IMG/VR virus record: IMGVR_UViG_3300026185_000029
Length of the DNA: 20,000 bases
Reading direction: 5' to 3' (one strand)
Source: an uncultured virus (IMG/VR IMGVR_UViG_3300026185_000029)
Taxonomy: Duplodnaviria; Heunggongvirae; Uroviricota; Caudoviricetes
In this document: positions 1 through 19,292 of the stretch, in pieces
How the letters are laid out: every line of letters begins with the position of its first letter
How positions within the stretch are numbered: the first letter of the stretch is position 1
Notes under the pieces: generated by a model
Databases searched by the model: none
Seen by the model: only the letters and a program-made list of their open reading frames with translations
What the model was told of the DNA's origin: nothing
Made by a program: the position numbers and the translations under genes

Positions 1-1
1 A

Positions 2-274
2 GATTATATCGAAGCACCTTCTAAGGATGAACTAAGACGCATTCTTAGCTTTATTGAAGAGAAGGGAGCTACTGGTTGGGATGAATTATTAGATGCTGGT
101 TTTGAATATCAGCATTTAGTCTGGGTGTATAACTCTTATATCATTGAGACTATCAGAGCTATGGATCCCACTATTGTCATAAGAAAAGGTATTGGAGATC
201 TAGACGAGGTAGTAGAAGAGTACTACGATAGTATCGTAGAAAGGATTTCGAAAGAGTTTAAAGAATACTCTTAG
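2..274 (+). CDS. 3' end of a hypothetical protein (5'-truncated by window edge)
   Basis: Frame 2 is open from base 2 (DYIEAPSKDELRRILSF...ISKEFKEYS) to TAG at 272-274. Not in the ORF track. Confidence 0.75.
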   Translation, partial: DYIEAPSKDELRRILSFIEEKGATGWDELLDAGFEYQHLVWVYNSYIIETIRAMDPTIVIRKGIGDLDEVVEEYYDSIVERISKEFKEYS

Positions 275-276
275 TT

Positions 277-334
277 AATAGTAGGTATCGATGTTACTTA
301 GTTATTAGTAGTTAAGAAATATCAGCTACCTATT
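277..334 (+). ncRNA. Candidate small structured RNA or hairpin
   Basis: TAGGTA(282-287)/TACCTA(327-332) and GATGTT(290-295)/AATATC(318-323) form a two-stem hairpin right after the upstream stop codon. Confidence 0.3.
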
Positions 335-369
335 CCTGTTAACTGAGCAGGAAACATAAAAGGTATATT

Positions 370-436
370 AAGAAAGCTAAAAGGAGTTCCTATACTTTTA
401 AGATTTAAAACTTAAAACTTACTCCTCAGCTTTCTT
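370..436 (+). ncRNA. Structured RNA motif A, copy 1
   Basis: Outer stem AAGAAAGCT/AGCTTTCTT, AAA opposite a single C, inner stem AGGAGT/ACTCCT, loop starting TCCTA and ending ACTT. Confidence 0.7.
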
Positions 437-465
437 GTTTTTCATGTTTTTGTTAAAGTTCAATC

Positions 466-501
466 ACTATTGAGCCTATGTATTTATATAGGCTCAATAG
501 T
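466..501 (+). repeat. 16-bp inverted repeat (hairpin) just upstream of the tRNA
   Basis: ACTATTGAGCCTATGT-ATTT-ATATAGGCTCAATAGT; one G.U pair in + sense. Confidence 0.8.
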
Positions 502-505
502 TTAT

Positions 506-578
506 CCCCTAGTAGCTCAGTGGTTAGAGCGCCCAACTCATAATTGGGATGTCGAGTGTTCAATTCACTCCTGGGGGA
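506..578 (+). tRNA. tRNA with CAT anticodon, probably tRNA-Ile2 (lysidine type); elongator Met not excluded
   Basis: Acceptor CCCCTAG/CTGGGGG; D-arm GCTC-AGTGGTTA-GAGC; anticodon arm CCCAA-CTCATAA-TTGGG; T-arm GAGTG-TTCAATT-CACTC; discriminator A578; no encoded CCA. Has C4:G69 and lacks the initiator G29-G31:C39-C41 pairs. Confidence 0.95.
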
Positions 579-657
579 CTTTCAATTACTCGAATGGAGA
601 TTCTGTTCTTATCAATCTATCAAGTCCCCAATCTTTATTAAGGAAATTTTAACTAAA

Positions 658-1056
658 ATGGAAGTCAGTCAAATGAATGATATTGAATTATTAAAAGCTT
701 ATACTGCAGAGCGTGCTTGTGGAGATATTCATGGACGAGGTTCTTTTAGTGTAAGGTACGAAACTGAGTTATTAGAAGAAATAATCTCTCGTGGATTAGG
801 AAACAAAACTATTTGGTGCGTTCTTAATAAAGAAGCGACTGGCACGATAACCTATTTGCAGAGTGATATAGAAACAGAGAGGGTTTATTCTAAAGGTACT
901 TACGTACAAGTAGAGTTACGTGACCCTAAAATCTGTCTTGATGAGGACGGGGATGGTTTCATAAATTTTAAGAAAGAGGACTTAGAAGAAGTGTTAGTTG
1001 ATATTGACGATCCCCCTTCCGATTGGAATGGGGAGACTGCTCTGTTTCAAGGCTAA
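658..1056 (+). CDS. Hypothetical acidic protein
   Basis: The ORF-track start (544) lies inside the tRNA. ATG at 658, preceded by AAGGA, is the more plausible start (MEVSQMNDIELL...). Confidence 0.7.
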   Translation: MEVSQMNDIELLKAYTAERACGDIHGRGSFSVRYETELLEEIISRGLGNKTIWCVLNKEATGTITYLQSDIETERVYSKGTYVQVELRDPKICLDEDGDGFINFKKEDLEEVLVDIDDPPSDWNGETALFQG

Positions 1057-1073
1057 ATTCTAAAGTTATTACT

Positions 1074-1137
1074 GCATAGAAGCTAAAAGGAGTTCCTATA
1101 CTTTTAAGATTTAAAACTTACTCCTCAGCTTCTTTGT
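1074..1137 (+). ncRNA. Structured RNA motif A, copy 2
   Basis: Core nearly identical to copy 1 (lacks one 7-nt TAAAACT repeat). Outer stem AGAAGCT/AGCTTCT differs from copy 1 but still pairs. Confidence 0.7.
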
Positions 1138-1163
1138 GAATACCTAATCTTTGTTGTTTATTT

Positions 1164-1202
1164 ATCAAGTCTATATGAGATTAATTTTTATATAGACTTG
1201 AT
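1164..1202 (+). repeat. 17-bp inverted repeat (hairpin)
   Basis: ATCAAGTCTATATGAGA-TTAAT-TTTTATATAGACTTGAT; two G.U pairs in + sense. Confidence 0.8.
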
Positions 1203-1217
1203 TTGTTATTACTACTT

Positions 1218-1448
1218 ATGCCCAATTACCAAGACATTAATCTTATATACGCTGAGACCGATATATCTTATTCTCAATTTATTATCGATACAGTAGAAGA
1301 AGTTTATCTAGATATAAAAGATTGGAATAGAGATGCCCTCCTTAGTAGGATATATTATCTTAATAATGTTTTAGAGATAATGGTGCCAGGAAAGGATAAG
1401 CAATTACTTATTCGTCTTATATCCGCATTAGAACCTCAAAAGAATTAA
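1218..1448 (+). CDS. Hypothetical protein
   Basis: ORF 1203..1448; ATG at 1218 (MPNYQDIN...) preferred over TTG at 1203. Confidence 0.6.
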   Translation: MPNYQDINLIYAETDISYSQFIIDTVEEVYLDIKDWNRDALLSRIYYLNNVLEIMVPGKDKQLLIRLISALEPQKN

Positions 1449-1485
1449 TGGAGATGTCGAATCTTCAATTCACTCCTGGAGGACT
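1446..1485 (+). pseudogene. Degenerate copy of the tRNA 3' half
   Basis: 35/40 identical to 541-580 (anticodon loop to past the discriminator). Two of the changes break the T-stem. Confidence 0.8.
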
Positions 1486-1495
1486 AAAAGTTTAG

Positions 1496-1792
1496 TTGAA
1501 TATATTAAAGATTATGGATAGTCAAACAGATTTTACCATTGAGAGAAATGATGGACTTATAGTACTTTTTGTAAATAGTGATCTACCTCCTCATGAAATA
1601 ATTCCTCTTGATGCTTATATCTACAAGGGTGGGGATACGGTTCTTAGGTTATGTGAGGTTGTATATCTTCAAGAAGGGAAAATAAAACATAAAGTATTGA
1701 GGCTTATCCCTTTTAATATTAAGCCAGGGGCACATTCAAATATTAAACTTGTTTGTGATAGTCAAAAACCGTTATTTCAATTTATCCAGTAA
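1496..1792 (+). CDS. Hypothetical protein
   Basis: 98-aa ORF. TTG start downstream of GGAGG (1478-1482); alternative ATG at 1514. Confidence 0.6.
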   Translation: MNILKIMDSQTDFTIERNDGLIVLFVNSDLPPHEIIPLDAYIYKGGDTVLRLCEVVYLQEGKIKHKVLRLIPFNIKPGAHSNIKLVCDSQKPLFQFIQ

Positions 1793-1808
1793 ATACATTT
1801 GCTAAGGA

Positions 1809-1857
1809 AGGTCTCTAACAGCACTCTAATTCTCATTGAATATATAAATTGAGGTCT
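1809..1857 (+). ncRNA. Candidate motif B (stem-ACAGC), copy 1
   Basis: AGGTCTC/GAGGTCT stem (two G.U pairs) followed directly by TAACAGCA; intergenic. Confidence 0.35.
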
Positions 1858-1915
1858 ATTTAAACGTAGTTATCAATTACTTATCTTATCAATAGATTTT
1901 GGGTCTGTATCTTTA

Positions 1916-3877
1916 TTAAGATAAATGGGCCCCTACTAACTTGATACTTCTTCCTAATCTGGGGATGCAATATTCATCTACTGCCTTTTGCATCTCCTCT
2001 ACTACATTGTCTTCTAAGGCTTTTATGGTTAACCCATCATGTTGCCATAAGATCGGTACATACGAGTGATGGGTCTTAATTATCATATAGGAGATTATAG
2101 ATACTTCTATAGATTGCAGGATGCCCGCTATTACTGTTAACATATTCCCTTCATCCTTTTTCATAACACCAGTCTTCTTATCTCTTCCTAGATTACGGAA
2201 CTTACGGGCGACAATCTGTTCCCCTGTAGGTAAGGTGATACGTTTCCCATCAAACTCCTTAGTTAACCATCTGAATAAACTTCTTACTTCTCTATAGAAC
2301 GGACTTGATATAAATACTTTCACAATTGCTTCATATTCCTCCTTGGAGAGAACTGAATCAGGATGGTGGTTGTTATATGTATTGACCGCTTTTTGATACG
2401 CTTTCGTACCTCCTCCTAAGAATGTTGCATGATGCATCGCTTTAATTAAACTTTTATGGAACTTGACTCCCGCTTCCTTATATAGCTCTTCATATGCAGA
2501 CCATAAGGATCCTTTAGAAAGATGAGCCTCTAGACTGGGTAGCTTGTCACCCCATAAGGCTAGGGCAATTTGAGCATGACAATTCTCTAAATCGACATCC
2601 ATGAACCCTAGCCCTTCCATCGCATGTAACCTCATCTCTTTACGACAATAGAATAAGTTATCTACTCCTTGTCCATATACTCTAGGACTGACTTTACTAA
2701 GGGTCTTATAAAGGAAAGGTAAAGCTCCTTTGCTATTCATAACAGAGAGTTGACGAGAATCTAAATCGTCAGAAGGAACATAGCTTAAGAGATTTAAGCC
2801 TAAGGCTTCATTGAAGGTGGATAGGTAAGACGCATGATCGGCGGAGAGGATTAAGGAGGCTTGATGGCGCAAGGCAGAAGGACTTAAGGTGGTGGGGCCT
2901 ATAGGGGAAGGGTGAGTAGTAGAGGATTCATAGTTGGAATCAGTGGATAAGGTTTGGGATTGGGTATTAGGAGTATTATTAGTGGTATTGGTCTTACCCA
3001 TATCACTAATATCCTTATTCATATCCATCTCCTCATCTCCTATAGTTCCGTCTTCTTGTTCTATGCCAAATCCCCTTACTGTATAGTCCTTTATCTTATG
3101 ACCTTCTTTAATCAACTTACCCACCAGCATGTTGAATGCTTTCTCTCTCCTTTCTGGTTGTATACCCGGTATAAACTTCCTAATTGCATCTCTTAGATCC
3201 TGTTGAGTTATGCTTACATCCGTTCTGCGTTTAATATCATTAACCACTTCTACGGCTCTTTTCTGGTCTTTTAATGCCTGATAGGAAGTCGCTTCTAGAT
3301 TTGCTTCTAACTGGCAGTTCTCTTGAAGTGTTGGGTTGTTAGGATAAAAGTTCTTTATCTTGACTTTAACGATGAAAGTTTCATCAATCTCGTCATATAA
3401 AGTAAAGATATTAGTGGTTATAATCTTATAGATAGCATCTGCAATGTAGCGACTCAAACCTTTTGTTTTCCTGACTTTAGCTTCTGCTGCTATATTTCTC
3501 TTATAGTTTGGCTTACTAATTTCGGCTAATACACCTTGTCCTTTAAGGTCTTGTAGGAATTGAGTAGATCTAAACTTACTCCCACTATGCAAAGTCTTTC
3601 CTTCTGATATCTTATAAGCTAATTCTGCTGGCATTATAGACCCACCATTTCTATCACTAAATGTGCTAATATTATACTTAAGAGCATCTGATTTAGATAA
3701 ACCTTTTTGATTCCACATTATATTAAGGAGAGGGAAGTGAGTAGTATAACCAGCAACAGCTTGTGAACGCTCTTTATAAGGTTTAGTTTTAGGAACTATA
3801 TAACCATTATGAATTTCTCTTTTTATAATAGGAGTCTTAAAAGATTTATCGTTAGTATGTTCTGTTCTGATTTTCAT
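1916..3877 (-). CDS. Divergent superfamily-A nucleic acid polymerase (TV-Pol-like) with unknown N-terminal region
   Basis: C-terminal part has PRVYG...RKEMR, motif A DVDLENCHAQI, motif B KAMHHATFLGGG, LQSIEVSII and motif C LWQHDGL in the expected order. ATG at 3877 or TTG at 3889. Confidence 0.7.
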   Translation of the reverse strand: MKIRTEHTNDKSFKTPIIKREIHNGYIVPKTKPYKERSQAVAGYTTHFPLLNIMWNQKGLSKSDALKYNISTFSDRNGGSIMPAELAYKISEGKTLHSGSKFRSTQFLQDLKGQGVLAEISKPNYKRNIAAEAKVRKTKGLSRYIADAIYKIITTNIFTLYDEIDETFIVKVKIKNFYPNNPTLQENCQLEANLEATSYQALKDQKRAVEVVNDIKRRTDVSITQQDLRDAIRKFIPGIQPERREKAFNMLVGKLIKEGHKIKDYTVRGFGIEQEDGTIGDEEMDMNKDISDMGKTNTTNNTPNTQSQTLSTDSNYESSTTHPSPIGPTTLSPSALRHQASLILSADHASYLSTFNEALGLNLLSYVPSDDLDSRQLSVMNSKGALPFLYKTLSKVSPRVYGQGVDNLFYCRKEMRLHAMEGLGFMDVDLENCHAQIALALWGDKLPSLEAHLSKGSLWSAYEELYKEAGVKFHKSLIKAMHHATFLGGGTKAYQKAVNTYNNHHPDSVLSKEEYEAIVKVFISSPFYREVRSLFRWLTKEFDGKRITLPTGEQIVARKFRNLGRDKKTGVMKKDEGNMLTVIAGILQSIEVSIISYMIIKTHHSYVPILWQHDGLTIKALEDNVVEEMQKAVDEYCIPRLGRSIKLVGAHLS

Positions 3878-4005
3878 ATTTAATGTCAATGAGAGATTGA
3901 TTTGTCTCTTTGATGTTTACACCCCTTATTTTAACAGATAATAGTCTGAAAAGAATAAGGGATTTTTCTTATAATTATTAAAGTTAACTAAAACAATTCA
4001 AATGA

Positions 4006-4341
4006 ATGATAACCCTCTTAAAATCCTTTTTAACTATATTAATAGCAGCAGTAATGGTGTTAGGGGAAGGGATAGGGAAAGAAGTATTAGGAGAGATTGA
4101 GACTCTTATCTTTAATATAGTGACAGAGGATAATCAACCTATACCATGCACTGCTGATAGAGGAGTTGATGGGCAAGTAAGAATGTATGTTTATCGACTA
4201 AATAATGAACAAGTAGAAAGGTTCATTGCTTGTGGCAATGAGATTGGAACATATCCAACGGTTCATTATAGTGATCTGAATCAACAACAGAAAGATTCAG
4301 TAAACTACCATATACTTCCACGTATATTTATAGAGAACTGA
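4006..4341 (+). CDS. Exported two-Cys protein, paralog 1
   Basis: Hydrophobic N-terminus; PIPC...GQV..YVY...C...YSDLNQQQKDSV shared with 8569..8886 and 9492..9800. Confidence 0.7.
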   Translation: MITLLKSFLTILIAAVMVLGEGIGKEVLGEIETLIFNIVTEDNQPIPCTADRGVDGQVRMYVYRLNNEQVERFIACGNEIGTYPTVHYSDLNQQQKDSVNYHILPRIFIEN

Positions 4342-4348
4342 GAAAAAG

Positions 4349-4378
4349 AAGTCGTATTTATTTACACAGATACGATTT
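4349..4378 (+). promoter_or_regulatory. Hairpin upstream of the 615-aa gene
   Basis: AAGTCGTATTT-ATTTACAC-AGATACGATTT; 11 bp with two G.U pairs. Confidence 0.4.
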
Positions 4379-4422
4379 AGAAAGTTTTTATTTATAATCA
4401 ATTATTTATTTATTTATTTACC

Positions 4423-4472
4423 TAGAAGGTAAAAGGAGTTCAATATGAATTTGCAATCACTTCTCACCTCTA
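4423..4472 (+). promoter_or_regulatory. Motif A copy 3, enclosing the SD and start codon of the 615-aa gene
   Basis: AGGT/ACCT outer stem, AAA opposite C4465, AGGAGT/ACTTCT inner stem. The SD (AGGAG) is paired and ATG 4445 lies in the loop. Confidence 0.6.
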
Positions 4473-6292
4473 ACAAAGAATTCACTAACGCCTGTTTAGC
4501 ATTATTTCAAGCATTACCTGAGCGAGTAGGTCAAGCGAAGCAAACTAAGATCTTACCTGAACAAGGATTAATCTTAGTATCTTCTAATATTGAATTATTA
4601 GAAGAATGGGTAAAAGAGAATGTTCTATCAGGTCATCAACTAAATAAAACCTTTCACAAGAGTTGGGGTTTAATTAAGGATAGTTCTAATGAAACATTAT
4701 TAGTTCAACAAATCCTTCATTACTTCTCCACTTACGGGCTTGAGTCTTTAGGATTAGAAGAACAGATTTGGATTCCTGCTGAGGAGTTAGAGATTCCTGA
4801 GCGATTAAAGTACCGAGTAATCAAAGATAGAGAAATAGAAGAAATCATTAACCGTTGTAAAGAGATGTTAGCTTCAGGCACTGCTCTTAAGGAATCTACA
4901 GTATTTAATATTGTAGAAGTACTTAAAGGATTAGAAGTTGACTTAGCCTCTTTAGAAGTTAACAATAAAGAAGCTCAGGTACTGGTAGTAGAAGCAACAG
5001 GTGATCTTCCTAATAAGGAGGATGAATTATTCCGTTACCTGTTCTATAAAGCTACTGGTGGTTTATTAATGGTTATTAAAAATAAGGCTTCCTATAGTCT
5101 TATTATTAATAATGGATATGAGTTACCAGAATTAACAGAGGAGCAGATCTTAGAGTTAGCTAAAGGATTTAACCGTCGTAAGCAATTATGGATGTCCTTC
5201 AAAAAAGCCAATAAGGGAAATATTAGTTTAGTCAATCGTATTGCGAAGAAGTCTAAAAAGGTCCATAGACCTATGCAGCCCGATGTGCTCAATACGTTAA
5301 CTAGTAAAAAATGGCCTATATCTCTTGTTGAAAAGGAAGCTAATAAGGCAGCTATTCCTCGATTAATCAAAGCCGTCAATGCTTTAAGATTCTATCAACG
5401 AGATGATCGTAATAGAGTCTATAGAGTGAGAAATGGTAAAGCCTTTACTAAAGAGCGGATTAGCAAGCAGCCCTCTTCATTAATGGCTTTATATGAAACA
5501 ACTCTACTCCAGGCATTAAAAGAAAAGCTTGGTATGAGAGTTGTTAAAGCGCCTAATAATATTTCTCTTAAGATCCCAAGTTCTGAAAAGAACTTTATGG
5601 GGCCCATTCCGTTTGGTAGTTCTTTAACTATCGAGATGGATAGGGGGAAGAAGCTATTAGTAGGTATTCATTGGGACTTTTACAACGGTGACTTAGATTT
5701 AAGGGCTGACTCCCGAAATCATTCAGTAGCTTGGAATAAGAGCTACAAGATAGATGAGAATGGTAACACTATTTATCATTCAGGAGATCTTGTTAGAGGA
5801 CCAGCTACAGAATGGCTATGCTTCACTCAAATCAATGAAGTCTTCAGACTTGATGTAAACGGCTATCATAATGCGGAGGAAGGGGCAGCCTTCAAGATGA
5901 TAGTTGGTCTAGTAGAGAAAGGGCCTATGCCCGATGATAAGGACCAAAATTACATTATCAATCCAGATGATGTTATTCTTGAGTTAGATGTAGAGCTCTT
6001 ATCAAAAGGGACTACTATTGGATTCATTAAGCCTTCCACTAATGATGAAGGACAAAGTTGTATGACTTTGACTTTAGGAAGTGGAGGAATGAATAACCAA
6101 GCAGTAGGAGGAGGTAAAGGTGATTTAGCAATTATTGCTGAGAAGGCAATGGTGAATAGTACCGTGGCTATGTTAGGTTTACCAGATATCTTTACGTTGA
6201 CCAATTCTGGTTCATCGGGAGAGGGTTATGTAGATTTATCAGAAGACCTGACAGCTGATAAGGTATTATCGCTAATCAGTGCTAATGGATAA
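4445..6292 (+). CDS. 615-aa protein: predicted helical (possibly Ro/TROVE-like) N-terminal region plus C-terminal TerD-like domain
   Basis: TerD-like motifs GIHW...DLDLRAD, HSGD, ATEW, VNGY. N-terminal block FHKSW...QQILHYFSTYG. Strong SD. The Ro-like assignment is an inference. Confidence 0.6.
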   Translation: MNLQSLLTSNKEFTNACLALFQALPERVGQAKQTKILPEQGLILVSSNIELLEEWVKENVLSGHQLNKTFHKSWGLIKDSSNETLLVQQILHYFSTYGLESLGLEEQIWIPAEELEIPERLKYRVIKDREIEEIINRCKEMLASGTALKESTVFNIVEVLKGLEVDLASLEVNNKEAQVLVVEATGDLPNKEDELFRYLFYKATGGLLMVIKNKASYSLIINNGYELPELTEEQILELAKGFNRRKQLWMSFKKANKGNISLVNRIAKKSKKVHRPMQPDVLNTLTSKKWPISLVEKEANKAAIPRLIKAVNALRFYQRDDRNRVYRVRNGKAFTKERISKQPSSLMALYETTLLQALKEKLGMRVVKAPNNISLKIPSSEKNFMGPIPFGSSLTIEMDRGKKLLVGIHWDFYNGDLDLRADSRNHSVAWNKSYKIDENGNTIYHSGDLVRGPATEWLCFTQINEVFRLDVNGYHNAEEGAAFKMIVGLVEKGPMPDDKDQNYIINPDDVILELDVELLSKGTTIGFIKPSTNDEGQSCMTLTLGSGGMNNQAVGGGKGDLAIIAEKAMVNSTVAMLGLPDIFTLTNSGSSGEGYVDLSEDLTADKVLSLISANG

Positions 6293-6295
6293 AAT

Positions 6296-6357
6296 ACAAA
6301 TAGGCAAAGGGAGTTCCTAATATTTTTATTGGAATAACTTACTCCCCGCCTATTTGT
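6296..6357 (+). ncRNA. Structured RNA motif A, copy 4
   Basis: ACAAATAGGC/GCCTATTTGT outer stem, AAA/C, GGGAGT/ACTCCC inner stem, TCCTA...ACTT; separated from the 615-aa stop codon by 3 nt. Confidence 0.7.
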
Positions 6358-6398
6358 TCTTAAAAGTTAAAAGGAAGATAATGAGAGTATAGATAAAA

Positions 6399-6465
6399 AG
6401 AGTATAGATAAAAAGAGTTCCTATTTATAAGAACAATAAATTACCTTACTCTTCATCTGTACTTT
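6399..6465 (+). ncRNA. Structured RNA motif A, copy 5
   Basis: AGAGTATAGAT/ATCTGTACTTT outer stem, AAA/C, AAGAGT/ACTCTT inner stem, TCCTA...CCTT; 15-nt tandem duplication AGAGTATAGATAAAA at 6384-6413. Confidence 0.65.
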
Positions 6466-6498
6466 AATACACTTATAAATCTTCCTAATAACTTCTAA

Positions 6499-6654
6499 GA
6501 GGGATAGAAAGTAAGAGGCAATTATTATTCTTAGGATCAATATAGAGAGTACAAAATCTACTCCCTGTAGATGTACTTTCATTTACATTGACCCGAATCA
6601 ATTTTGTCCATTTGAGAGATAATAATTATACTCTTACTATTCTTCCTATTCTTT
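6499..6654 (+). ncRNA. Candidate ~155-nt rod-like structured RNA
   Basis: Nested pairings AGTAAGAG/CTCTTACT, AATTATTAT/ATAATAATT, TCAAT/ATTGA, GAGAGTAC/GTACTTTC and ATCTAC/GTAGAT in an intergenic gap. Confidence 0.45.
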
Positions 6655-6672
6655 ATCTAACAAGTAAAATAA

Positions 6673-6864
6673 GTGAGTAAATTAAATATGAATACAGGTA
6701 CCGTACAACGAGTAAAAGATCTAGCTTATAAGAAAGGTCATAGGACTGGAGCTAAAAGTAAACTAGGAGAAGAAGCGAAGTGTCCTTACATTACTTCTTG
6801 GGTAAGCCTTAGATGGATGGATGGATACGAGGAAGGACAATATGAAGTTGCAGCTGCTAATTAA
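6673..6864 (+). CDS. Rmf/CrpP-fold (ribosome modulation factor-like) small protein
   Basis: AYKKGHRTG...CPY...WMDGYEEG matches the Rmf pattern AxxxGYxAG...CPY...WLxGWxE. Start GTG 6673 or ATG 6688. Confidence 0.6.
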   Translation: MSKLNMNTGTVQRVKDLAYKKGHRTGAKSKLGEEAKCPYITSWVSLRWMDGYEEGQYEVAAAN

Positions 6865-7042
6865 TCTCTTCAACCTTAAGGTAACAGGATTAGACGGAGA
6901 AGGTTTACCGTATGATCCTGAAGCTGATTTAGTAGACCTAGGGTATGGCGTATATCCTTTAGGAAAGATTAGGACTAACTTCAAAGTTAGGTTTATTCAT
7001 ACTCTATTGATCTTAGAGAGTAGATTTTTACGTCGAAAGTAG
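6842..7042 (+). CDS. Hypothetical protein
   Basis: ATG 6842 after GAGGAAGGA; short overlap with the previous gene. Confidence 0.5.
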   Translation: MKLQLLINLFNLKVTGLDGEGLPYDPEADLVDLGYGVYPLGKIRTNFKVRFIHTLLILESRFLRRK

Positions 7043-7070
7043 GTAAGTACAAAGGAAAGAGAGAGAGGCT

Positions 7071-7379
7071 ATGAAAGTATTAATCAATACGTTAGCAGGA
7101 GGATTTAATCCTTCTGACAAGTTGTTAAGTCGGTATAAAGAACTAGGAGGAAAGGTATATTATTTCCCGAATCTGATGGGAAAGAAATACTTTCTAGAGA
7201 TGAGCGAGGGATTGAGAAGAGATCCGACTCTCATTAAATTAGTTGAGCAGTTAGGTGCCGAAGCAAATGGTCCATACTGCGAATTAGAGGTAGTAGAAGT
7301 ACCCTCTAATGTTTACAAAATTAGAGCAGACGAAGATGGCTCTGAATTCGTTGATTATTTAGCAGCGATTGAGCATTGA
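7071..7379 (+). CDS. Conserved phage-type hypothetical protein
   Basis: MKVLIN..GGF..S and RxDPxLIxLVEQLGxEANG...LEVVEVP resemble a family I recall from large phages. SD GAGG. Confidence 0.75.
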   Translation: MKVLINTLAGGFNPSDKLLSRYKELGGKVYYFPNLMGKKYFLEMSEGLRRDPTLIKLVEQLGAEANGPYCELEVVEVPSNVYKIRADEDGSEFVDYLAAIEH

Positions 7380-10272: not shown

Positions 10273-10785
10273 ATGAATAGAATTTCATCAATTCTTTTAA
10301 TAGGAATTTTAGCATCATGTTCTAATACTCCTAATCCTCAACCCCAACCTCAACCTCAACCAGGTCCAGTATTATCTGAGCTGTCTATAGAAACCCTCCC
10401 TGACTCCTGTAGAGTAATAGATGGTGATACTATAAGTTGTTTCTTAGATGGTCAACAAGAGTCTATTCGATTATGTGGAGTAGACGCATATGAAAGGACA
10501 CAAGAAGGGGGTGATGCAGCTACAGCAGCATTAGAAAGACATCTTAATAACTCTGGTATAACCTTCACAAGGGGAAATAGAGATAGATATGGTAGGATCA
10601 TATCTTCTTTATTCACTAAAGAAGGAGAGAGTATAAATGCTGCACTGGTAGAAGGAGGTCATGCCTTCATGTATACGACTTATGTGGGAGGATGTGCTGA
10701 TGAGCAGTTTATTAGAGAAGCACAATTGAACAATCCGGCCGTACCAGGTATTGAATTACCTTGGGATTATAGAAGGAATAGATAA
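10273..10785 (+). CDS. Lipoprotein thermonuclease (SNase family)
   Basis: Lipobox LASC, (PQ)n linker, and SNase motifs VIDGDT, IRLCGVDAYE, DRYGR, NAALVEGGHA, PWDYR. Confidence 0.9.
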   Translation: MNRISSILLIGILASCSNTPNPQPQPQPQPGPVLSELSIETLPDSCRVIDGDTISCFLDGQQESIRLCGVDAYERTQEGGDAATAALERHLNNSGITFTRGNRDRYGRIISSLFTKEGESINAALVEGGHAFMYTTYVGGCADEQFIREAQLNNPAVPGIELPWDYRRNR

Positions 10786-10788
10786 ATA

Positions 10789-10842
10789 GATTCCCTACAG
10801 CTAGTAAGTAATGACTATCGTTATGATAAATCTAAGGGAATC
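10789..10842 (+). ncRNA. Candidate motif B, copy 3
   Basis: Perfect GATTCCCT/AGGGAATC stem followed by ACAGC; about 175 nt upstream of the DUF2828 gene. Confidence 0.45.
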
Positions 10843-10869
10843 AGCACTGACAGTAATTTTTACCTAGGC

Positions 10870-10925
10870 AGATGGATGATAATAAAGAAATGTATAAAAG
10901 TAATTATTTCCAATATCATCCATCT
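10870..10925. repeat. 12-bp perfect inverted repeat
   Basis: AGATGGATGATA ... TATCATCCATCT. Confidence 0.7.
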
Positions 10926-11017
10926 TCTCTTTGGTATTTATCCCATGATAATGGGACACATATATTTATAGAATGAATCTTTATATTAAAAGATATAGAG
11001 ATCATAAGGGAGGATGA

Positions 11018-12007
11018 ATGAGTAGCATCAAAGCAGTTAGGCCAAAGATTTCGGTCCCACAATCTACAGTGGAATTATCAAGACAACGCCGATCTGTAAC
11101 CAGGGGAAAGTTGATGAAGATATTCCTAGACTCGCTAAGAGTGAGTCCAGGTTTAACGTTAAAGGTCATATTTTATATAAGGGACATTGAAGGCCGAGGA
11201 GAAAGGAGAATTTTTAATACGGCTTTTACCAGTTCATGGGGAGATCAAGAAGATAAAAGGGTGGAACTTCTTAATTCACAGATCTTCTGGGAATTAATAG
11301 TGAAATATAGTTCATGGAAAACAGTGCTTGATTTAGCATTACCAATGATGGAGAAAGTGCTAGTTGAGACAGAAGAAAAAGAAGAAGAATATAAATTAAA
11401 AGTTATAGAAACGTCTTCAGGTTTAAATATAAAGTTAAAGATAAAGATAAACGCTAATAAGGATAATGAGAAGGAGAAGGAGAAGGAGAAAGATAAAGAT
11501 AAGACAAACTTCAATTATCTTGTTTTATTGGAGCTTATAAAAGATACGTTAAGAAAAGATATGAGTTCAAGGAACCCATCTCTCTTAGCGAAATGGTTAC
11601 CGTCAGAATATAAAGCTCATGCTGTAGCATATCCTAATGCCTTTAAAGCGTTAGTGTCGTATATAAGCGGTCAGAGAGGAATAGCAATATATAGAAAGAC
11701 ATTGACTAGCTTAAGATCTAAGATAGGTATTGTAGAGCAAAAGATGTGTGCCAATGAGTGGGGCAAAATAAATTACGGTGATATACCCATGAATGCCCGT
11801 AAGAAATACAGACGTGCTCTCAAGAGACACGGAGTGAAACCTAGTAAACGGAGAAGTAAAAGTGAAAAGGTAGAGATAGGTAAAAAGAAAGAATCTAATA
11901 TACCAACAATAGCAACAGACGACGTTCTATCAATCAAAAGAGTGGTAGAGCATAATCCTCGATACACAGAGGTAGAAGAATTAGAAGCAATTCTACGCAA
12001 TAACTAA
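11018..12007 (+). CDS. DUF2828-family (Ro/TROVE-like) protein, N-terminal domain only
   Basis: FYIRDIEGRGERRIF, KYSSWK, LLAKWLPSE, YRKTLTSLR, VEQKMCANEWGKINY. No C-terminal vWA MIDAS (DxSxS) motif. SD GGAGG. Confidence 0.75.
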   Translation: MSSIKAVRPKISVPQSTVELSRQRRSVTRGKLMKIFLDSLRVSPGLTLKVIFYIRDIEGRGERRIFNTAFTSSWGDQEDKRVELLNSQIFWELIVKYSSWKTVLDLALPMMEKVLVETEEKEEEYKLKVIETSSGLNIKLKIKINANKDNEKEKEKEKDKDKTNFNYLVLLELIKDTLRKDMSSRNPSLLAKWLPSEYKAHAVAYPNAFKALVSYISGQRGIAIYRKTLTSLRSKIGIVEQKMCANEWGKINYGDIPMNARKKYRRALKRHGVKPSKRRSKSEKVEIGKKKESNIPTIATDDVLSIKRVVEHNPRYTEVEELEAILRNN

Positions 12008-12024
12008 AGGAATAGGAAATTATT

Positions 12025-12315
12025 ATGTTATCAAAACTTCAACAAGAAGTACTCAGCATATTTTTAGCATCGTCAGACCCCAAAGAATTTAAAGAATTTG
12101 AAGATATCAGAGATGCGTTAGAATCTGATGTTTCACCATCTTATCTCCACACAGTTATAAGAGAGTTATGTAAGATGGGTTACATACAAGAACAAGAAGG
12201 AAAAAGAAGGGCGAATAAGAAAGTCTACTCTATATTAGAGTCATCGGAAAGTTATAAGCCCAACTACACCTATGCTGAAGAACCGTGGAAGATTGATCCA
12301 CGAATCTTAGATTAG
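12025..12315 (+). CDS. Winged-helix DNA-binding protein
   Basis: LSKLQQEVL...DIRDAL...SPSYLHTVIRELCKMGYI...KVYSI has a wHTH pattern. Confidence 0.65.
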   Translation: MLSKLQQEVLSIFLASSDPKEFKEFEDIRDALESDVSPSYLHTVIRELCKMGYIQEQEGKRRANKKVYSILESSESYKPNYTYAEEPWKIDPRILD

Positions 12316-12316
12316 G

Positions 12317-12988
12317 ATGAAAATACTAATAGTGGGGGATACTCATGGAGATATTAAGCTTATATATGAAGCAATAGATTATGCTAAAGAAATGGGATGT
12401 AAAGAGATTTATCAAGTAGGGGACTTTGGGTTCTTTCCTAATCTTTATCCTGATTTCCTAGCTAATCTAAATTCTCCAATCCCCTTTTATTTTATTGATG
12501 GTAATCATGACGATCATTCAGTTCTAAAAAGGTATCGTCATGAAAATAGCCCTATAAGCTTAGAAGATATGGGATATGACTCTTATAACTTTTACTATAT
12601 TCCTAGAGGATATATGAAGCTTGTAGGTTCTTCTAATATAATGTTTATCGGAGGGGCTAACTCAACTGATAGACGTTATAGAAAAGAAGGGATAGATTGG
12701 TGGAGAGAAGAAACAATAGACTTCTCAGAATATTATAGATGTATAGGTAATGTAAGCTCTTGTAAAGTAGACATCATTCTGAGCCATGAAGGTATTAGAA
12801 GTGAGGTAATAGCTTATGAAGAGAAAGATAATTGTAGGGAAGCTATTGAGCAATTGGTAATGTTAGCCAAACCTAGCCTTTTGATACATGGACACCATCA
12901 TATTAGTTATATGACTAATATAAATGGAACGTGTGTTAAAGGTTTAGGATGTACTTCCAGATCTATGTACGAAGTATTAGTAGTTTAA
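12317..12988 (+). CDS. Calcineurin-like metallophosphoesterase
   Basis: Motifs GDTHG, GDFG, GNHD, SHE and HGHHH. Confidence 0.92.
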   Translation: MKILIVGDTHGDIKLIYEAIDYAKEMGCKEIYQVGDFGFFPNLYPDFLANLNSPIPFYFIDGNHDDHSVLKRYRHENSPISLEDMGYDSYNFYYIPRGYMKLVGSSNIMFIGGANSTDRRYRKEGIDWWREETIDFSEYYRCIGNVSSCKVDIILSHEGIRSEVIAYEEKDNCREAIEQLVMLAKPSLLIHGHHHISYMTNINGTCVKGLGCTSRSMYEVLVV

Positions 12989-18518: not shown

Positions 18519-19196
18519 TTGACTAATATTTATTTAGCCGTAAGTGGAGGTATTGATTCAATGTACCTTCTTCATTGTCTTGTCGAAAGAAAGGCAAATA
18601 TTAAAGTTATCAATTATCATTACGGAGATCCATATTCTGATCAAGTCGATAATTTATTAAGGGAGGTTTGTAATCAATATAAAGTACCTTTAATACTTAG
18701 TAGTGAGTTAGAAGGAATCCATAATAAGGATTGTAGTAATAACAATAAGGAAGCTAATTGGAGGGATAGTAGATATAAATTCTTTGCAAGAGTCTTAAAT
18801 AAAACGAATACAGCTTCTAATGAACGACCTGTATTGTTAGTAGCTCATCATGAAACAGATCAATTAGTTTCGTGGATAATGTCTAGACTGAAAAATAGTC
18901 GAAGATGTTTTATTCCTTTAATAGGGAATCATCAAGGTGTAAAGGTTGTAAGACCTCTATATCGAATGGCTAAAGAAGATATAAAAAGAGAGGTCATTCG
19001 TAAGAGTATTCCTTATTTAGAGGATCCTGAGAATAGTCATGGTGATAGAGCAGCTGTAGAGAAATTAATCCCAGCGCTCAAAGAAGCCATCTCACAAATG
19101 CAAGGAGCTTTCGCTAATCAATACGAAGATTGGTTAAATAGATATATCACTAGCTTAGACAAAGAAGACCAGGCTTTATTAGCTAGTTTAAGTTAG
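18519..19196 (+). CDS. tilS: tRNA(Ile)-lysidine synthase-like PP-loop enzyme, catalytic domain only
   Basis: AVSGGIDS PP-loop, EANWRDSRY, AHHETDQ, VRPL, YLEDPEN. TTG start after a purine-rich SD. Confidence 0.8.
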   Translation: MTNIYLAVSGGIDSMYLLHCLVERKANIKVINYHYGDPYSDQVDNLLREVCNQYKVPLILSSELEGIHNKDCSNNNKEANWRDSRYKFFARVLNKTNTASNERPVLLVAHHETDQLVSWIMSRLKNSRRCFIPLIGNHQGVKVVRPLYRMAKEDIKREVIRKSIPYLEDPENSHGDRAAVEKLIPALKEAISQMQGAFANQYEDWLNRYITSLDKEDQALLASLS

Positions 19197-19215: not shown

Positions 19216-19292
19216 GATAGATAGTACCATCCATGTATATAATTTATGAGACTTCTAGTTTTATCTTATATACATAGATGGTACTATCTATC
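19216..19292. repeat. 27-bp inverted repeat with one mismatch and a 23-nt spacer
   Basis: GATAGATAGTACCATCCATGTATATAA ... TTATATACATAGATGGTACTATCTATC. Confidence 0.85.

Follow-up and report, generated by a model that had tools for sequence, protein, structure and literature searches.

Among described systems, the Ro60/Rsr-Y RNA particle comes closest to the locus reported here. According to the available part of Chen et al. (2014, PMC4201824), Y RNAs are encoded beside Ro60 and mimic transfer RNA (tRNA), and the Rsr-recognition motif in the Y RNA stem reads GNCGAA(N)G. The available part of Hughes et al. (2020, PMC7790460) describes the Salmonella operon rsr-yrlBA-rtcBA, in which Rsr, YrlA/YrlB and the rtc genes stand together. 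We analyzed a stretch of 20,000 nucleotides (nt), "the window", from an uncultured virus of the Caudoviricetes (IMG/VR record IMGVR_UViG_3300026185_000029), in which a recurrent hairpin, termed motif A, accompanies the gene for a 615-amino-acid (aa) protein. One degenerate copy of the motif covers the start of this gene, and a preliminary description, made from the sequence alone, had proposed that the protein represses its own translation at this site by binding a mimic of its RNA ligand. Our results on conserved motif A and the 615-aa protein family are pointing to an undescribed protein-RNA partnership which appears to be linked to tRNA genes and RNA repair.

Motif A is about 60 nt long and consists of a variable outer stem of 7 base pairs (bp), an internal loop in which A-W-A lies opposite a single C, and a purine-rich/pyrimidine-rich inner stem of 6 bp; its terminal loop opens with invariant UCCUA. 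In the four intact copies of the window, the three-base internal loop is AAA opposite one C, and the terminal loop starts with TCCTA. Copies were scored with R1, a covariance model built from seven other copies, with the start-site copy left out. The features concerned are:

370..436, + strand: motif A copy 1, intact hairpin (R1 70.1 bits, E 2.6e-18; fold −12.9 kcal/mol), 70 nt upstream of the tRNA gene
506..579, + strand: tRNA gene, anticodon CAT (ARAGORN; Rfam tRNA 68.1 bits), co-oriented with the hairpins
1076..1135, + strand: motif A copy 2, intact hairpin (R1 74.8 bits, E 1e-19; fold −14.3 kcal/mol, z −2.62), the copy used for comparison in the preliminary description
4422..4473, + strand: start-site copy of motif A, degenerate, covering the translation start of the 615-aa gene (R1 23.5 bits, E 1.6e-4; 18/19 identity to copy 2)
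4434..4438, + strand: Shine-Dalgarno (SD) sequence AGGAG, read from the sequence, identical with the 5' inner-stem arm of the motif and 6 nt before the ATG
4445..6292, + strand: gene for the 615-aa protein, an open reading frame (ORF) whose AlphaFold2 model has a predicted local distance difference test (pLDDT) score of 91 and a TerD fold at residues 395-569
6297..6356, + strand: motif A copy 3, intact (R1 73.6 bits; fold −19.9 kcal/mol, z −4.41), beginning 5 nt past the stop codon of the gene
6401..6463, + strand: motif A copy 4, intact (R1 60.7 bits; fold −7.2 kcal/mol)

Motif A is a real structured RNA, as shown by covariation. In the hand-checked seed alignment of 7 copies, two-sided changes occur in 9 of 13 pairs, with 95.6% of the cells paired. 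In 134 distinct sequences from viral loci, such changes are seen for each of the 13 pairs and the paired cells amount to 91.7%, although this alignment (A4) was fitted to the structure of the model, which favors that structure. However, slid partners pair in 39-50% of cells only, the observed values were reached in none of 500 shuffles, and both the slid controls and the hand-checked seed alignment agree with the covariation seen in the 134 sequences. G-U/U-G pairs outnumber A-C/C-A pairs by 53 to 25, which favors an RNA read from the strand of the gene. UCCU is present in 134 of 134 distinct intact copies, an invariance which is partly due to ascertainment, because seed pattern and model both demand UCCU. 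Column counts along the 5' strand of the motif give G/R/C/A/W/A/R, with A at the fourth position in 132 of 134 sequences.

Known RNA families were searched for motif A. At the gathering threshold, Rfam 15 matched the tRNA alone in the window, and E-value scans of window positions 1-7100 and 21 related loci left the simple motif A copies unmatched at E ≤ 1. Pedo-repair RNA (RF01715) was considered and rejected: it gave no match at E ≤ 1 in a Pedobacter locus (L248) and five other loci, and its sole match in the Pedobacter genome (16.6 bits versus a gathering score of 150) lies away from the locus. Intrinsic terminators were rejected as well, as the scan of 1-7100 gave one site, 1164-1202, which is not a motif copy; tails after motif copies are without T-runs in most cases. 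No description of the protein family or of motif A was found in the literature, the alignments of the viral structured-RNA catalogue of Fremin et al. (2023) and Burroughs & Aravind (2016) being outside the search. Motif A may be an unnamed entry in that catalogue.

The association of the motif with the 615-aa gene was assessed by several searches. At first, no relatives were obtained, either from viral contigs with one protein as query or from GenBank phages by blastn. A degenerate pattern scan of IMG/VR returned 95 loci, nearly all of them chance matches, with the full motif in four only (L005, L056, L062, L075); the contigs behind three of these four encode homologs of the 615-aa protein with 31-34% identity. 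A word-indexed search gave 67 relatives, among them g174 of S-CRM01. An alignment of the family retrieved 156 viral relatives, from which 80 loci were fetched, and 80 further loci were fetched from 373 relatives in species-representative genomes; the latter are mostly Bacteroidota, including many Chryseobacterium chromosomes, plus several contigs of archaeal metagenome-assembled genomes (MAGs). In the viral loci, R1 found 173 matches at E ≤ 0.1, each of the 173 on the strand of the gene. All 186 matches in the cellular loci (E ≤ 0.01) share the gene's strand, too, and lie just upstream. After removal of 5 duplicates, 69 of 75 distinct viral loci carry one to four copies upstream and five carry downstream copies; the six loci without upstream copies include one cut at its contig end (L153) and one with three downstream copies (L144).

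Scans of entire phage records showed that motif A occurs almost only beside this gene. In a complete phage of 114 kb (G001), the only R1 matches are two copies just upstream of the homolog. G002 and G003 have two strong matches each (66-68 bits), one at the start of the gene and one after its stop codon, and G002 has one extra weak match elsewhere (17.2 bits, E 0.055). Of the four matches in S-CRM01 (178 kb), three form a tandem array that ends 11 nt upstream of g174, and the fourth directly follows the stop codon of this gene. The two matches in S-CBWM1 end 13 nt before gp22 and lie between two tRNA genes of an array, respectively. Based on these results, it is strongly supported by the comparison of loci that motif A is tied specifically to the 615-aa gene family, in agreement with the link between motif and protein drawn in the preliminary description. 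Since phages, bacteria and archaeal MAGs all have motif A beside homologs and on the same strand as the gene, an RNA-ligand relationship is the best reading of the linkage. In another phage record (G004; L103 1501-2759), an ORF for an HNH endonuclease comes after a tRNA-like stretch and three copies of the motif, and the last 13 residues of this endonuclease weakly resemble the N-terminal peptide of the family (hhalign E 0.19); this suggests insertion of a homing endonuclease into the 5' end of the gene.

The element at the start of the 615-aa gene is confirmed as a degenerate copy of motif A. Positions 4423-4441 (TAGAAGGTAAAAGGAGTTC) differ from 1077-1095 in copy 2 by a single C to G change (18 of 19 bases identical). 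The 3'-arm partner of this base, within the coding sequence, changed from G to C in compensation (AGGT opposite ACCT) and, therefore, the stem pair is kept. The 5' arms cover 4424-4439 and the 3' arms 4459-4471; AGGAG (4434-4438) can pair with ACTTCT (4459-4464, codons 5-7), including one G-U pair, C4465 is unpaired, and the ATG (4445-4447) lies within the loop. Thus, the preliminary description had read the copy correctly in its identity to copy 2, in the compensated pair, and in the positions of SD sequence, unpaired C and start codon. At up to three mismatches, the 19-mer occurs three times in the window versus 0.04 times expected, a number reached in none of 200 shuffles. With 23.5 bits, 4422-4473 obtains the fifth-best R1 score of the window after the four intact copies (60.7-74.8 bits).

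The fold of the start-site copy is weak. Its motif-like fold has −7.5 kcal/mol, versus −8.7 kcal/mol for a different minimum-energy fold. Positions 4423-4472 alone have a z-score of −1.31, and 16 of 200 shuffles fold as well or better; in a context of 101 nt the z-score is −0.05. Pair probabilities are 0.35-0.67 in the isolated 50-mer and 0.11-0.31 in contexts of 101-141 nt. Further, the loop is without the invariant UCCU of the motif, having GTTCAATA in place of GTTCCTAT. Over 4340-4560, near-relative contigs show one differing letter, in one short contig (X6). The start-site element is best read as a decaying copy rather than a proven operator.

The start-site element overlaps the SD sequence and the start codon of the gene for the presumed regulator, and the preliminary description had suggested examining whether homologous genes keep the fold around their start codons. 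They do not: every candidate start lies downstream of the last detected hairpin in 61 of the 69 viral loci with an upstream hairpin, and a start in or before the last hairpin is possible in only 8. In 40 of these 61 loci, the gap between the last hairpin and the start measures 2-25 nt; where it is longer, the sequence often shows additional complex copies that R1 did not detect. G002 and G003 present a case parallel to that of the window, with the whole hairpin inside the first 20 codons. The short spacing would leave some autogenous control possible, but simple operon packing explains a distance of 2-25 nt equally well. Together, the non-conserved layout and the loss of UCCU weaken the idea of a tuned operator, while residual binding may persist. 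In summary, the proposed autorepression by a ligand mimic is supported in part only: the underlying link between motif and protein is strongly supported by comparative genomics, but the start-in-loop layout is not conserved, UCCU is lost and the fold is weak.

The 615-aa protein was modeled by AlphaFold with high confidence (pLDDT 91, predicted template modeling score 0.89). Residues 395-569 form a TerD fold (2qz7_B: Z 9.6, root-mean-square deviation 2.8 over 138 residues; 2kxt: Z 8.3), and a lead from the ESM Atlas also points to PF02342, the Pfam TerD model, which itself matched 0 of 62 family members at E ≤ 1. PHROGs gave no match for the protein, and Foldseek on the whole protein returned low-scoring chance rows only (TM about 0.1). 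The N-terminal part of about 390 residues is mainly helical and reaches a pLDDT of 79 when folded alone; its best VIA Z of 7.5 is on a helical hairpin. Residues 120-365 are basic, with an isoelectric point of 9.9, which suits nucleic-acid binding, but proves nothing. The invariant Phe of the family is F21 in the window protein, where 20 residues precede it versus 7-8 as the family mode; the hairpin loop and 3' arms encode this N-terminal extension of 12 residues. Identity with Ro60 (TROVE and von Willebrand factor A domains) was considered and rejected: none of 62 family members matches TROVE (PF05731) at E ≤ 1, and the C-terminal domain is TerD (Z 9.6). Ro (1yvp) aligns over just 62-63 residues with Z 4.4-5.8, tied with unrelated helical proteins. 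No TROVE gene was found in five phage records carrying the module (S-CRM01, S-CBWM1, Phass-1, G001, G002), and control genomes were positive.

Some copies of motif A are combined with tRNA-like modules. In some, a T-arm is followed within the motif loop by a closed stem and then a D-arm, which is the permuted order typical of YrlA; matches to YrlA in Rfam (RF02553) were obtained at some loci only (35.9, 39.0 and 42.4 bits), all below the gathering score of 69. Other copies have a normal acceptor/D/T scaffold with the motif helix replacing the anticodon loop, and such motif-bearing scaffolds score 37-58 bits with the tRNA model, with an insert of about 45 nt. One YrlA-like RNA, with T-arm before D-arm, lies in S-CRM01 at 132222-132336 (L115 1379-1493; 35.9 bits, sub-gathering), directly upstream of the three hairpins before g174, and is unannotated in the GenBank record.

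In viruses, the gene is found near tRNA genes: they lie within 2.5 kb of it in 20 of 60 viral loci scanned, all co-oriented, and in S-CRM01 and S-CBWM1 the gene is embedded among them. In L169, a tRNA (672-746) abuts a hairpin (747-822) at the tRNA 3' end. Two further RNAs were noted beside homologs. In L190, ARAGORN predicts a tRNA with a four-base anticodon (ctat) at 2175-2250, just upstream of the homolog and in a locus with no R1 match listed, and a viral contig (L147) carries a permuted transfer-messenger RNA (RF04321, 80.3 bits, above the gathering score) at 4268-4520, just downstream of its homolog.

Neighbors were also examined in the cellular genomes. A Chryseobacterium locus (L235) has the order rtcB, motif-bearing tRNA-like RNA, three hairpins, gene, RlaP. 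By tblastn, 38 of 80 genome loci have an rtcB homolog at a distance of up to 2.5 kb, in 36 cases upstream on the same strand; related Chryseobacterium species dominate this count, so that these loci are not independent. RlaP was found in 10 of the 80 loci, a PrfH-like gene with RF-1 domain in 5 and an RNase T-like gene in 5. In two Tenacibaculum loci (L232, L236), a PrfH-like RF-1-domain gene upstream and an RNase T-like exonuclease gene downstream replace rtcB and RlaP. On an archaeal MAG contig (L263, 1086-2180), a CCA-adding/poly(A) polymerase-type nucleotidyltransferase with an HD domain adjoins the module on the opposite strand.

We consider it probable that the 615-aa protein has the hairpins as its RNA partners and forms with them a Ro/Y-RNA-like particle which is connected with tRNA biology and with repair by RtcB, and that 4422-4473 is a decayed gene-proximal copy. 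Motif A would then be the dedicated RNA partner of this protein family, with the RNAs encoded as one to four tandem copies next to the gene, normally just upstream. The hairpins are probably co-transcribed with the gene and with neighboring tRNA genes (phages) or rtcB (Bacteroidota), and the transcript would then be processed into small RNAs, some of which carry a tRNA-like module. The particle of protein and RNA may act in tRNA/RNA repair or surveillance, as Ro60/Rsr and Y RNA do, yet built from unrelated parts. For the window, the simplest history would be an upstream shift of the start codon into the loop of the last hairpin: the purine-rich 5' arm would have turned into the SD sequence, the loop would have lost UCCU, and the 3' arms would now be translated as the N-terminal extension of 12 residues. 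If the protein still binds the remnant, its own ribosome-binding site would be blocked. A wider proposal is put forward with more reserve, and we rate it at somewhat below even chances. It holds that a widespread ribonucleoprotein, composed of a TerD-domain protein with a new N-terminal domain and Y-RNA-like hairpin/tRNA-like RNAs, is a non-homologous counterpart of Ro60-Y RNA, which works with RtcB in tRNA repair or surveillance in Bacteroidota; phages would have it in their tRNA arrays for protecting or mimicking tRNAs against host defenses targeting tRNA, and the gene-proximal hairpin would provide autogenous control.

A number of observations weigh against a particle of this kind. We infer RNA binding by the 615-aa protein from gene linkage, and the adjacency of gene and RNA could stem from a shared transcript with another binding factor. 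TerD, the sole recognized domain in the protein, is known for Ca2+ binding and tellurite resistance, not for RNA binding. Pfam had no match for the window protein or 62 family members (E ≤ 1), PDB sequences had none for the 615-aa protein, and the fold search with the N-terminal part gave generic helical matches only (Foldseek E > 0.1). Regarding repair, 36 of 80 genome loci have none of the four tested repair-type neighbors within 2.5 kb, rtcB is near the gene in only 1 of 80 viral loci, and the rtcB count is subject to the dominance of Chryseobacterium given above. The linkage has its exceptions, too: in Phass-1, the copies are non-adjacent, lying approximately 1.3 kb downstream and 9.5 kb off, and G004 is the one record which has three motif copies without an intact homolog. 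For the RNA itself, the fitting of the 134-sequence alignment to the model and the partial ascertainment of UCCU belong to the same side of the account.

Other explanations of the hairpins have to be compared with a protein-bound RNA partner. RNA-binding proteins commonly control their own synthesis through mimics of their ligands, with ribosomal proteins, ThrRS, T4 gp32/RegA and MS2 coat protein as examples. Following this scheme, the start-site copy would function as an operator: by binding the ligand mimic, the 615-aa protein would stabilize the hairpin over SD sequence and start codon and repress its own translation, so that its level would track the free motif RNA. We regard this as unlikely, although several features would suit it. 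The copy retains both stems, with a compensatory change, as well as the AAA internal loop and the unpaired C. SD sequence and ATG are inside 4422-4473, and the hairpin in G002 and G003 likewise lies within the first codons; with a gap of 2-25 nt to the start, the last hairpin of 40 among 61 viral loci would be near enough for a bound protein to hinder 30S binding. However, the UCCU kept in 134 of 134 intact copies is missing, the score is low (23.5 versus 60.7-74.8 bits), and the fold is marginal by energy (−7.5 versus −8.7 kcal/mol), by z-score (−1.31 alone, −0.05 in context) and by pair probability in context (0.11-0.31). Moreover, 61 of 69 homologous loci are without the start-in-loop layout, tight operon packing gives the same spacing (neighboring hairpins of an array are a few nt apart by their coordinates), and binding itself is presumed. 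A putative operator would be compatible with the hairpins being RNA partners of the protein; its form is unconserved.

Two further explanations dispense with the protein as binder. The hairpins might be cis-acting processing or stability elements, or another factor might bind them, for instance RtcB, a host RNase or an enzyme of tRNA processing; they would separate and protect the mRNA in polycistrons with tRNA genes or rtcB. In that case, they would not be ligands of the 615-aa protein, and the start-site copy would be left as a relic. The hairpins embedded in co-oriented tRNA arrays and the hairpin abutting a tRNA 3' end in L169 fit such a function, the stacked stems of 7 + 6 bp have about the length of the acceptor/T minihelix of a tRNA, and the protein has no recognized RNA-binding domain. 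In whole-genome scans, however, the motif is found almost only at this gene rather than at other genes of the same tRNA arrays, both the window and L144 have intact copies downstream of the gene, and the conservation of unpaired nucleotides between hosts as distant as cyanophages, Bacteroidota and archaeal MAGs speaks for a partner traveling with the module. We consider a cis-acting function, or a role as ligand of another factor, improbable. Very improbable, in our view, is an action of the repeats as DNA instead of RNA, for instance by serving a mobile gene cassette as hairpins for recombination or transposition. Copies flanking the gene in G002/G003 and S-CRM01, the identity of window copies 1 and 2 across 41 nt and the HNH gene at the module in G004 would be in line with mobility. 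Against this stand the strict orientation to the gene (173/173 and 186/186 matches), the excess of G-U over A-C pairs, and the tandem arrays of non-identical, covarying hairpins and the fusion to T-/D-arm modules, both of which fit RNA; further, no transposase or integrase was linked to the module in the 24 genome loci with neighbors scanned.

The window as a whole is phage-like, with many small ORFs in one orientation and the single tRNA(CAT) at 506-579; nuclease, phosphoesterase and PP-loop genes are also encoded. The 3'-most 40 nt of the tRNA gene recur with 88% identity at 1446-1485, about 905 nt downstream. The segment between the tRNA and this repeat contains motif copy 2, a 17-bp hairpin (1164-1202) and two small ORFs, and it looks like an insertion by which the 3' part of the tRNA was duplicated. 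The PP-loop ATPase at 18519-19196 (PF01171, E 8.8e-26) shares the window with the CAT-anticodon tRNA. Because PF01171 includes the lysidine synthase TilS, this tRNA might be a lysidine-modified tRNA-Ile rather than tRNA-Met. A cluster of three genes at 10273-12988 has an RNA-metabolism flavor, comprising an SNase-type nuclease, a DUF2828 protein of 329 aa (PHROG 850, "RNA-binding protein") and a metallophosphoesterase; the DUF2828 protein has no relatives in five other phage records carrying the module. Finally, a 27-nt inverted repeat with 96% complementarity and a 23-nt spacer lies between two ORFs at 19216-19292.

If protein and hairpin RNAs form a particle, this would be a second, independently evolved solution to the task of Ro60 and Y RNA. 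Phages and Bacteroidota contain the module in hundreds of genomes (156 relatives in viruses, 373 in species genomes), and it is located where tRNA supply and RNA repair are encoded; it is relevant to the question for what reason tRNA arrays are maintained in phages. For a large family of "hypothetical proteins", to which g174 of the cultured cyanophage S-CRM01 belongs, there would be a name and a testable partner, and motif A adds a covarying RNA family which is missing from Rfam 15. As Chryseobacterium and Tenacibaculum are culturable hosts, the link to rtcB is testable.

In comparison to known systems, the TerD proteins 2qz7 and 2kxt superpose on residues 395-569 with Z 9.6 and 8.3. In contrast to them, the family is unmatched by Pfam TerD (E ≤ 1) and has an unmatched N-terminal part of about 390 residues, and no ter-operon genes are among the neighbors scanned. 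ToxIN, a type III toxin-antitoxin system, has tandem RNA repeats directly upstream of a protein gene, and the module resembles it by its tandem structured RNA units, which are co-oriented and immediately upstream of the gene of the presumed binder. However, motif A units are diverged hairpins with covarying stems instead of near-identical direct repeats, no terminator is seen between array and gene, and the protein of about 600 aa has a TerD-fold domain and no similarity to ToxN/AbiQ (judged from the lack of Pfam matches; PADLOC was not searched). Ligand-mimic operators, as in ribosomal-protein operons or those of ThrRS, T4 gp32/RegA and MS2/PP7 coat protein, share with the start-site element a hairpin with an unpaired base that covers SD sequence and start codon and resembles free RNA copies encoded elsewhere. 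Unlike in these operators, the mimic here is without the most conserved loop bases of its motif, binding is only presumed, and homologs keep an intact hairpin upstream of the start, the layout being unconserved.

The likeness to Ro60/Rsr-Y RNA covers both organization and structure. One to several co-oriented small-RNA genes stand beside the protein gene, often upstream; a terminal stem has a conserved asymmetric loop; some copies carry a tRNA-like module of T- and D-arm, and at some loci there are weak matches to Rfam YrlA, below the gathering score. As far as the available parts of the cited papers go, adjacency to rtcB in many bacteria and presence in phages are shared as well. The differences concern the molecules: the 615-aa family is without TROVE (0/62) and has a C-terminal TerD fold, most motif A copies are bare hairpins in tandem arrays, and their 5' strand reads G-R-C-A-W-A-R instead of GNCGAA(N)G as given in the available part of Chen et al., with A rather than G at the fourth position. 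By this analogy, we rate the module as one that would work like Ro60-Y RNA while standing outside that family.

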